From NCBI GenBank assembly GCA_030390025.1, contig CM059430.1:158968001-159032000 (forward strand): a DNA stretch of 64,000 nt, given 5' to 3'. A program made the position numbers and the translations under genes. Positions 41,012 to 43,670 of this stretch are shown one piece after another. This stretch comes from Squalus acanthias. Taxonomy: Eukaryota. A model generated the notes under the pieces. That model was not told the DNA's origin. It ran no database searches and saw only the letters and a list, made by a program, of their open reading frames with translations. Each line of letters opens with the position of its first letter. The stretch's first letter is position 1.

Positions 41012-43670
41012 CCCTGGCCTGAGGTCGAACTCCAAACCATCATCAATACCTTCACCGAAGCGTACGAGAGCATGGGCCTTACACTAAACATCCGTAAGAC
41101 AAAGGTCCTCTTCCAACCTGCCCCCGCCACACAGTACTGCCCCCCGATTATCAAAATACATGACGAGGCCTTGAAAACGTGGACCACTTTCCATACCTCG
41201 GGAGCCTACTGTCAACAAGGGCAGACGTCGATGACGAAGTCCAATACCGCCTTCAGTGTGCCAGTGCAGCCTTCGGTCACCTGAGGAGGAGAGTGTTTGA
41301 AGACCAGGACCTCAAACCCGGCACTAAGCTCATGGTCTACTGTAAGGGGTTTTGTCGTGCTTGTATCACAGACGGTGCTGGTGCGAGGTTAGGCCTTTGT
41401 TGCCTAATACTATTGCTTGCTCTGGTCTCCGGCCAGCCTTGTTGCAATAAGCACCTGTGAGTGGTTCGACCCACTCGCCCTTACAGTTCTAACACTGGAC
41501 TTAGGTGCGAGAGCAGTAATGCAGAGAAAAACTCAAATAGACCCGGTTGAATAGTACGAAATGGAAATCTTTATTGCATAGCGTCCAAAATCATGAAGTA
41601 CATGTCATAGGCGCAAATTAACGAGAGTACAAGTATACATACATTCATAAAGCTTGGTCTATGGTAATGAAGAACGCACGGCACATCGTAAAAAGGGGAA
41701 CACATTATACTTTATCCTTAATAAAACCACCCTCCCCTATCAATACCTACACTACGTCTAGATTTGTAGGATCGGGAAACATGCTCACCACTCGTGATAC
41801 TTCGGAGAATTTTAAAGTGAGGCACTCGGCTCGTTCGCTGCAGCGCCTGTCTGTCACATGTTTGGAGGGGTCTCTGTACCCCACTTGTTTATCTTCGCTG
41901 CTGCGGCAAGCAGGCCGGGCTCCCCGTTGTCATGAAGAACTCGACAGAACTCGGGCCCGGTTGTAGAACTCAAAGAAAAGTCTTCCTGTACTGACACCAG
42001 TGTCGGTAGAATTCAATGAAGAGTCTTCCTATGGTGATGGAGTCGATGGACCTAAACCGGTTCGTGCAATAACCCGTAGAATTCAAGAAGTGAGTTCTAT
42101 ATTTTCGGGCGCGGTCGGGGTTTACTGACCGCGGCGGCACGTGGATTCTTCTTCTTTTCTTGTCATTTCGTCTTGTCTTGTTGGGCCTTCGGGTCCAGAC
42201 ACCGTTTACCGACTCTTGGGATGGCGCACCTGGTCACTTGCCCTTGTCGAGGCGGCTCGTTCCGTTTGAGCTCCACCCAACATTCGAATAACCGACCAGT
42301 ACGGCTAAAAGACAAGAGTCAACAATGTCCAGCCCTAAGGAAAAGCTTCGGCAGTCAGCAGCAAGCTAAGAGACCGATGGACGTTTGTTCACTATAGTTA
42401 TAGTGCTGTGTTCCCTTATCTCCCGCTCAAATCTTAATGTTTGTCCTTTGTGAAATATTGGCGCTCAAAACTCCCAGCATGGGGCGATTCTTGTCTTTAA
42501 CGGGTTTCGGTAGCACCTGAAACTGGCCAACTATCCGTTAATGTTTTCCCCATTGTTGACCCAGCCAGGATTGTCTGAATCGTCTCCCTGACTGGTTTTG
42601 GGGGCCCCCGAATACTCGTTTGATCACCCGTCAATGTCTCTCTCATTGTAGAGCCGTGGGGGTATTTGTGTATTGATGTGTCTGGATGGGCCTTCGATTG
42701 CCCAGTACAATGGTCCTTACTTGTGCATGGAAAACGATTCCAGCACTTATATCTTTTGCTATTGTTTCGAATGCAAACAGGTTGCATCCTGTCTTTATCA
42801 GTGTTTATCGAGTATGATCCCGTCTTATATTGAAATGTTTATTCGAACGCCATCTTGTCTGCCCACTGTAATTCTGGAAACTTCTGCCACGATGCGCGGC
42901 GGCCATTTTACAGGCTTCTGTGTCCTTTATATCATGACAGCATTTCGTTTAATAAAACTGATCAAGCGAATCTGCTTCTCTTGTGTTATTTTGAATCGCG
43001 ATAATTGCGAAACTTTACACTACAGAGCAGCAGTGATACCTGCCCTCCTGTATGCCTCAGAGACATGGACCATGTACAGCAGGCACCTCAAAGCACTGGA
43101 GAGGTACCACCAACGCTGCCTCCACAAGATCCTGCAAATCAATTGGCAGGATAGGCGCACCAACGCCAGTGTTCTCACTCAGGCCAACATCCCCAGCATC
43201 GAAGCTTTGACCACGCTCGATCAGCTCCAATGGATGGGCCACATTGTCCGCATGCCCGATACGAGACTCCCAAAACAAGCGCTCTACTCGGAGCTCCGAC
43301 ACGGCAAGAGAGCCCCAGGTGGGCAGAGGAAATGCTTCAAGGACACCCTCAAAGCCTCCTTGAAAAAATGCAACATCCCCACCGACACCTGGGAATCCCT
43401 GGCCCAAGACCGCACAAAGTGGAGGAGAAGCATCTGGGAAGGCGCCAAACACCCAGAGTCTCTTCACCGGGAGCAAGCAGAAGCCAAGCGCAAACAGCAG
43501 AAGGAGCGCACGTCAATCCAAGCACCCCACCCACCCGCCCCTTCAACCACCGTCTGCCCCACCTGTGACAGAGACTGTAGGTCCCGCATTGGACTCATCA
43601 GTCACCTGAGAACTCATTTTTAGTGTGGAAGCAAGTCATCCTCGGTTCCGAGGAACTGCCTAAGAAGAAG
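41012..43670 (+). mobile_element. RTE-clade LINE, 5'-truncated (pieces 41012-41340 and 43020-43670)
   Basis: MGLTLNIRKTKVL, FPYLGS, ASAAFGHL, TKLMVY|RAAVIPALLYASETW, WMGHIVRM...RLPK, a C-terminal CPTC...HLRTH zinc finger and an (AAG)n tail. Confidence 0.93.
41341..43019. mobile_element. 1679-bp probable solo LTR (retrovirus or Gypsy); orientation probably minus
   Basis: Begins TGTAA and ends TTACA, with an exact 4-bp TSD CTAC (41337-41340 and 43020-43023). Removing it restores the RTE reading frame. Confidence 0.8.

Follow-up and report, generated by a model that had tools for sequence, protein, structure and literature searches.

A solo long terminal repeat in Squalus acanthias and the young, env-bearing retrovirus family to which it belongs

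In a 64,000-nucleotide stretch of the Squalus acanthias genome (the window, whose numbering is used throughout), the reading frame of a long interspersed nuclear element (LINE) is interrupted at 41341..43019 by 1679 bp that begin with TG and end with CA, which raises the question of what kind of element was inserted there and whether it represents a retrovirus of a known group. The insert is a solo long terminal repeat (LTR), an ordinary member of an unusual retrovirus family. Considered together with its proviral relatives, it very probably derives from a high-copy, env-bearing endogenous retrovirus (ERV) whose reverse transcriptase (RT) lies at the base of the Retroviridae, a reading that includes a predicted read-through between gag and pol, a putatively long R region and a probable paramyxovirus-F-like Env with an immunoglobulin (Ig)-like domain.

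The insert and its proviral relatives

The upstream fragment of the host LINE (41012..41340, plus strand, delimited by its reading frame) ends in TKLMVY, and the frame resumes with RAAV at 43024 and runs to a C-terminal C2H2 finger (43024..43623, plus strand, from frame and Pfam), the insert thus separating LKPGTKLMVY from RAAVIPALLY. LINE copies uninterrupted at the same junction are present in contigs of public runs. The insert has the termini TGTAA and TTACA, is flanked by CTAC in direct reading at 41337..41340 and 43020..43023 (plus strand) as target-site duplication (TSD), and has an observed/expected CpG ratio of 0.93 compared with 0.42 for the window. An earlier model reading of the letters alone (the sequence-only reading) had described a CpG-rich TG...CA insert of this length with an exact 4-bp TSD that splits an RTE reading frame between TKLMVY and RAAV; the insert, its TSD, its CpG richness and the split all hold, whereas Pfam identified only the C2H2 finger in the flank, and the LINE is presumably of RTE type.

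Within the window no second copy of the element was found, nor was a long terminal inverted repeat found in the insert. Searching the genome with the insert gave 44 matches from 40 scored out of 4510 candidates, and 36 matches span nearly the entire insert at 93-100%. Among solo-like copies with complete ends (L010, L023 and L030 were excluded for incomplete ends), 16 of 20 carry an exact 4-bp TSD, two a 3-bp one and two none. Because of these genomic matches and the recurrent exact TSDs, the insert is not a chance pattern. The match list also holds three pairs of LTR copies spaced 6.1, 7.9 and 9.3 kb apart, inside the range of 5-15 kb in which the sequence-only reading had proposed to look for them. 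Two copies 25 kb apart on contig C8 were rejected as a pair, as they are separate solos, each with its own TSD. The copy in the window would likely be what recombination of one LTR with the other left of an integrated provirus.

In the provirus, LTRs of 1.6-1.7 kb surround an interior of 9.3-9.4 kb. Read in the sense of the minus strand of the window, the interiors of paired copies start with an 18-nt primer-binding site (PBS) exactly complementary to the tRNA-Arg(TCG) of the genome plus CCA; at their far end lies the purine tract AGGAGGGAC (PPT). Owing to this placement, the sense of the LTR is that of the minus strand, its U3 end lying at 43019 and its U5 end at 41341, which bears out the preferred strand of the sequence-only reading and settles the orientation it had left uncertain. 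Between PBS and PPT follow a gag that encodes a CCHC knuckle, a single TGA, pol and env. The pol frame continues that of gag behind the single TGA, the context being TGA-CTAG in 18 of 18 matching loci (30 examined), and Pol would be made by read-through of UGA-CUA-G. By Pfam, Pol comprises protease, RT, an RNase H-like tether domain, RNase H as well as integrase (IN); PF17919/PF17917 followed by PF00075 make up the dual RNase H. The env product has 783 aa, and no sense open reading frame (ORF) of at least 90 aa was found downstream of env. The idea of a fish retrovirus LTR has thus proved sound, as the paired copies flank a gag-pol-env interior with PBS and PPT. All three interiors read are broken, by pol stops and frameshifts, by a deletion across the IN-env junction or by loss of pol. 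In one copy, a low-complexity stretch of ~270 aa with an internal duplication and without a Pfam match follows the integrase (L032:5668-6477); it is probably the tail of Pol, many pol frames being ~1496 aa long.

The PBS begins 5 nt (4 in some subfamilies) past the terminal CA of the LTR, compared with 1 nt in snakehead retrovirus (SnRV) and a usual retroviral gap of 2 nt, and this gap may mean that the U5 end trimmed by the integrase is unusually long. The 3' pattern of tRNA-Arg(TCG) itself has 429 matches, most of those listed lying in tandem arrays at C26:38.99-42.2 Mb with a period of ~1623 bp that adjoin tRNA-Ser, an abundant primer supply.

Genome-wide, exact junction patterns were counted 2863 times for the PBS and 3418 times for the PPT, corresponding to ~3,000 proviral junctions, and an exact U5 18-mer 7432 times, with no match for the reversed controls. 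As these counts are floors and the U5 motif is absent from some of the provirus ends listed, no ratio of solo LTRs to proviruses is drawn from them. A PPT lies within 15 kb of 70 of the 89 PBS sites listed, and among these paired junctions (contig C1) the distance is 9.2-9.5 kb in 43 of 70 and 5.9-6.1 kb in 14 of 70. Since the short copies recur and the single one read (L031) has kept gag and env and lost pol, amplification of this pol-less class likely occurred in trans.

In eight 5'/3' LTR pairs the Kimura two-parameter distance is 0.0037-0.026 (0.4-2.6%), and six of the eight have matching TSDs; ten RT loci yielded five of the pairs, while at the remaining five loci no complete or collinear pair lay in the stretch taken. 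The distances correspond to insertion ages of 0.8-6 million years at 2.2e-9 per site per year, or of 8-59 million years at a tenfold slower rate that has been assumed for sharks (Han 2015, PMC4422223). The copy in the window differs by 1.8% from its nearest sampled relative, identity is 98-100% throughout the 150 RT matches scored (from 16,207 candidates) and 95-100% throughout the 104 env matches scored, many RT and env matches having long open frames. Judged by these divergences, the family as a whole is young, and it would have spread recently, at least partly by reinfection.

Layout of the long terminal repeat

Conservation was followed across 37 LTRs of several subfamilies, and the minus-strand motifs listed by the sequence-only reading were all found where it had placed them. 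Two motifs in U3 that resemble YY1 sites are AAAATGGCCGCC (42898..42909, minus strand, start 42909), with its first 8 nt invariant in 37/37, and AAGATGGCG (42848..42856, minus strand, start 42856), present in 34/37. A likely TATA box, TATAA at LTR position 618 (42398..42402, minus strand), is invariant in 37/37 and is preceded 59 nt upstream by CCAAT (42457..42461, minus strand; 28/37). Further downstream on the same strand lie a candidate major splice donor, G/GTGAG at LTR position 1231 (41784..41789; invariant in 37/37), a second TATAA at position 1311 (41705..41709; 34/37) and the likely poly(A) signal AATAAA at position 1445 (41570..41575; 36/37), the donor being ~210 nt upstream of the signal. 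Because 3-5% of all 5-6-mers are invariant in this set anyway, such conservation is suggestive and not proof. The base composition of the LTR changes at the position-618 box, the U5 is its most conserved region, and positions ~600-1100 (41920-42420 of the window) are its most variable part, at 28-65% in some 100-nt bins and with short direct repeats. On the plus strand there are AATAAA hexamers at 42951 and at 41720, the latter missed by the sequence-only reading; the one at 42951 was rejected as a poly(A) signal, being less conserved (24/37) and contradicting the orientation given by PBS and PPT. Two antisense ORFs of 101 and 114 aa were likewise rejected as genes, since they recur in close copies and not in diverged subfamilies, and no sense ORF with an ATG is conserved within the 37 LTRs.

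From these signals a layout with a U3 of ~645 nt, an R of ~800 nt and a U5 of ~210 nt is plausible, in which transcription would start near LTR position 645 and end near 1470. Binding of U1 at the donor in R would then repress the 5' poly(A) site in the manner of foamy viruses, in which U1 binding is described as suppressing the 5' site, and to which a donor that precedes the poly(A) signal has been called unique (PMC3694450).

The alternative that deserves most attention concerns the layout only: the same retrovirus might have an ordinary short R, its promoter being the TATAA at position 1311 and the first 1.3 kb a long U3 enhancer. That box is found in 34/37 LTRs ~130 nt before the AATAAA, SnRV has an R and U5 of only 84 nt together, and with 5% of all 5-mers invariant, the invariance of the upstream signals is modest evidence. 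However, no CCAAT lies near the box at 1311, whereas the invariant box at 618 has a CCAAT at canonical distance and coincides with the shift in base composition, and the invariant donor at 1231 would fall outside a transcript started downstream of it. A short R is regarded as possible but doubtful.

Placement among the retroviruses

For the RT trees, 147 RT regions taken from the search matches were cut to 96, 78 and 45 rows, chiefly through removal of redundant Gypsy rows, and the set was extended by foamy and lenti/beta-type rows and by two more families from sharks; Odin and fish foamy-like ERVs were not among the rows of these trees (LG+G4, no mixture model). The family sits on the side of the Retroviridae with a support of 100/99 (98 in the Shimodaira-Hasegawa-like approximate likelihood ratio test, SH-aLRT, of another tree), in a basal polytomy together with SnRV and rows of class III type. 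Closest to it are Pol proteins of frogs and coelacanth, annotated as 'NYNRIN-like' or 'ribonuclease H', with ~44% identity and a path length of ~1.0 changes per site. Against RT chains, Pol scores higher with the type of murine leukaemia virus and its xenotropic relative (MLV/XMRV; E 1e-69) than with foamy viruses (E 1e-57 to 1e-62). The best fit is likely the assemblage of SnRV-related and class III ERVs called clade Huo (Xu et al. 2018, PMC6001957; PMC4977317), with which CmiERV lineage I (Han 2015, PMC4422223) is grouped here.

With SnRV the shark family shares the basal RT position, a CCHC Gag, one stop codon between in-frame gag and pol, an Env without CX6CC and a very similar TGGCGA- primer site. 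The primer of SnRV is presumably also tRNA-Arg, and the compared sequence itself is taken to be SnRV from motif identity with a published alignment and a length of 10,688 nt. The two were not recovered as sisters, and they differ in the LTR (~1.7 kb with a long R-U5 in the shark family, 84 nt of R and U5 in SnRV), in the gag-pol stop (TGA versus TAG) and in the length of Env (783 versus ~1100 aa), the shark family in addition lacking an ORF after env.

Foamy viruses make 4-bp TSDs, their Gag is not known to carry a CCHC knuckle nor their Pol to be fused to Gag, and accessory tas/bel2 genes follow their env. From the 4-bp TSD and the long LTR the sequence-only reading had inferred that the LTR could be that of a foamy-like or otherwise undescribed fish retrovirus. 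The LTR of ~1.7 kb, the 4-bp TSD and a candidate splice donor that precedes the poly(A) signal (compare PMC3694450) do fit a foamy virus, and the likely F-type Env has a counterpart in the F-like Env of subclass Ib in foamy viruses (PMC11468914); a sister position to them is not rejected in the approximately unbiased (AU) test (p 0.10). A foamy virus is nevertheless not supported, given the CCHC Gag, the in-frame gag-TGA-pol junction of read-through type, the tRNA-Arg primer and the lack of any tas/bel2-like ORF after env or conserved in U3. Moreover, in the trees sampled without fish foamy-like ERVs, foamy RTs form a 100/100 clade of their own without the family, Pol scores higher to the MLV/XMRV-type chains, and the attachment module of the shark Env is likely N-terminal and not inserted. 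A foamy or foamy-like origin is thus quite improbable. Searching the genome with an RT pattern of FLERV type gave no match, although a pattern search of this kind does not show absence.

Lokiretroviruses were considered first because of the dual RNase H and the likely F-like Env. Like the shark family they have gag-pol-env, a tether and an RNase H, a likely F-like Env with an RxxR site and a long LTR (Wang and Han 2020, PMC7947760; as lokiorterviruses in PMC9040795), and in the published Loki-Bsp several nucleotides separate the LTR end from the PBS; a member in sharks would be the first in cartilaginous fish, as Wang and Han found none of 6 chondrichthyan genomes positive (PMC7947760). The RT motifs of the family (LPQGFHNSP/QYVDD) differ, however, from those of the published Loki set (PFGY.N../IYVDD). 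The proteins identified as Loki by matching these motifs form their own 100/99 clade, union with which was rejected (AU p 0.030), and the IN and RNase H trees, poorly resolved as they are, keep the family outside Loki. No smc-like ORF was seen in the shark family, and its Env is extended N-terminally by ~240 aa that likely include an Ig domain, whereas the Env of Loki-Xtr, the single published one read, begins at the F core and lacks such an extension. Taken together, this makes a lokiretroviral LTR very improbable.

An ERV of epsilon/gamma type is ruled out by the AU test (union with epsilonretroviruses p 9e-6) and by an Env without CX6CC. An env-less Gypsy LTR or a Ginger-type transposon with terminal inverted repeats, which have in their favour only the TG...CA ends and the 4-bp TSD, can practically be dismissed because paired direct repeats with PBS and PPT flank a gag-(TGA)-pol-env interior with dual RNase H, the RT lies outside Gypsy (100/99) and no long terminal inverted repeat is present, so that of the alternatives named by the sequence-only reading, the first does not overturn its retrovirus idea nor the second its LTR call.

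The envelope and its bearing on retroviral evolution

Env has a likely signal peptide, the furin-type sequence RQRR at residues 327-330, ten sequons, one transmembrane helix near residue 734 and no CX6CC. F-likeness is indicated by ESM Atlas scores of 0.93-0.95 and by 11.9 bits against a hidden Markov model (HMM) of 37 paramyxovirus F proteins (one of the 37 checked as PF00523), compared with at most 2.9 bits in 500 local shuffles. An Ig-like domain at residues ~85-180 is suggested by Pfam Ig_3 in two homologs, by weak matches of the region to JAM-A and CRTAM and also by Foldseek and VIA; in one frog gene model among the relatives an Ig-like stretch follows IN (Ig_3 E 0.012). Concordant but weak, this evidence makes it likely that Env is a paramyxovirus-F-like fusogen, with the predicted architecture of the measles/RSV-type fusion proteins, and has an N-terminal Ig-like domain; it would be furin-cleaved, and the predicted Ig-like domain would bind the cell. 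By analogy, such an N-terminal module would fit the scheme in which the F-like subclass Ib fusogen scaffold of foamy Env takes receptor modules N-terminally or as inserts (PMC11468914).

SnRV Env can be aligned colinearly with the shark Env (26% across 286 columns), the furin sites of the two falling together, and its N terminus bears a comparable Ig-like motif. The similarity is statistically weak, 11-25 of 1000 shuffles being as good under two profile settings and 100 of 1000 under a third, with a pairwise z of 0.9-2.5. On the paramyxovirus-F HMM, SnRV env (L162:6131-9532) scores above 493 of 500 shuffles, and SnRV Env may itself be of F type.

Several observations weigh against the composite picture of a basal family with a long R and an Ig-bearing F-like Env. 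For Env, hhalign against F gave P 0.18, Pfam (PF00523 included) and PDB sequence and profile searches yielded nothing significant for Env, the AlphaFold2 models (single-sequence and 29-row) are poor (predicted local distance difference test, pLDDT, 31.8 and 35.7), and F was not among the matches listed by PDB fold searches with them, a result that does not exclude F; a BFVD fold search gave only a torovirus spike (E 2e-4, TM <0.1). Every Ig score is under the curated cut-off, and the Atlas Ig score of 0.8 is at chance level. Within the basal Retroviridae the grouping with frog and coelacanth reaches only 82/57, and union with SnRV (AU p 0.20) or foamy viruses (p 0.10) was neither rejected nor recovered. 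In the public-run contigs, which as contigs do not lend themselves to reading transcript ends or splices, no start site, poly(A) site or splice was observed, nor is a GT..AG joint leaving the LTR donor listed there. Finally, two of the eight LTR pairs lack matching TSDs.

Named Env homologs come only from skate, sawshark and catshark, which fits a cartilaginous fish as host, and no env or RT relatives were returned as loci from metagenome or viral contigs. A skate Env (P0001) is 76% identical to the young family, while an older subfamily of the same shark genome (L142) reaches only 69%, a hint of cross-species spread or of long-lived parallel lineages. A second shark ERV family (L133:1-768, minus strand, and L140) has a Pol 32% identical and shares the Env core at 35-40% identity. 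Open frames of 1704 aa occur in a third, young family (L134-L138), for which the single stretch read downstream contained no env.

In the literature searched on shark, loki, SnRV, foamy and class III ERV topics, which did not cover subscription papers, no description of the family was found, and it is probably undescribed. Taken by itself, the insert is just one LTR among thousands. The ~3,000 young proviruses stand against 100-700 ERV insertions in the elephant shark, as reported in PMC4977317, the layout of the LTR points to a very long R and to poly(A) control of foamy type in a virus that is not foamy, and the family matters above all for pairing an RT from the canonical side with a likely F-type Env. 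Such an Env was earlier reported for lokiretroviruses and foamy viruses, separate gain versus inheritance being left open there (PMC7947760, PMC9040795). A third carrier makes this question testable with structure, and together with the second shark family that has the same Env core it favours deep inheritance. Tentatively, the family might belong to a basal lineage of cartilaginous fish, frogs, coelacanth and perhaps SnRV with an Ig-capped F-type fusogen and an R of ~800 nt under foamy-style U1 control, a lineage that may still infect sharks and skates. If this were true, the F-type envelope, in view of the foamy and Loki Envs, would be the ancestral retroviral Env.
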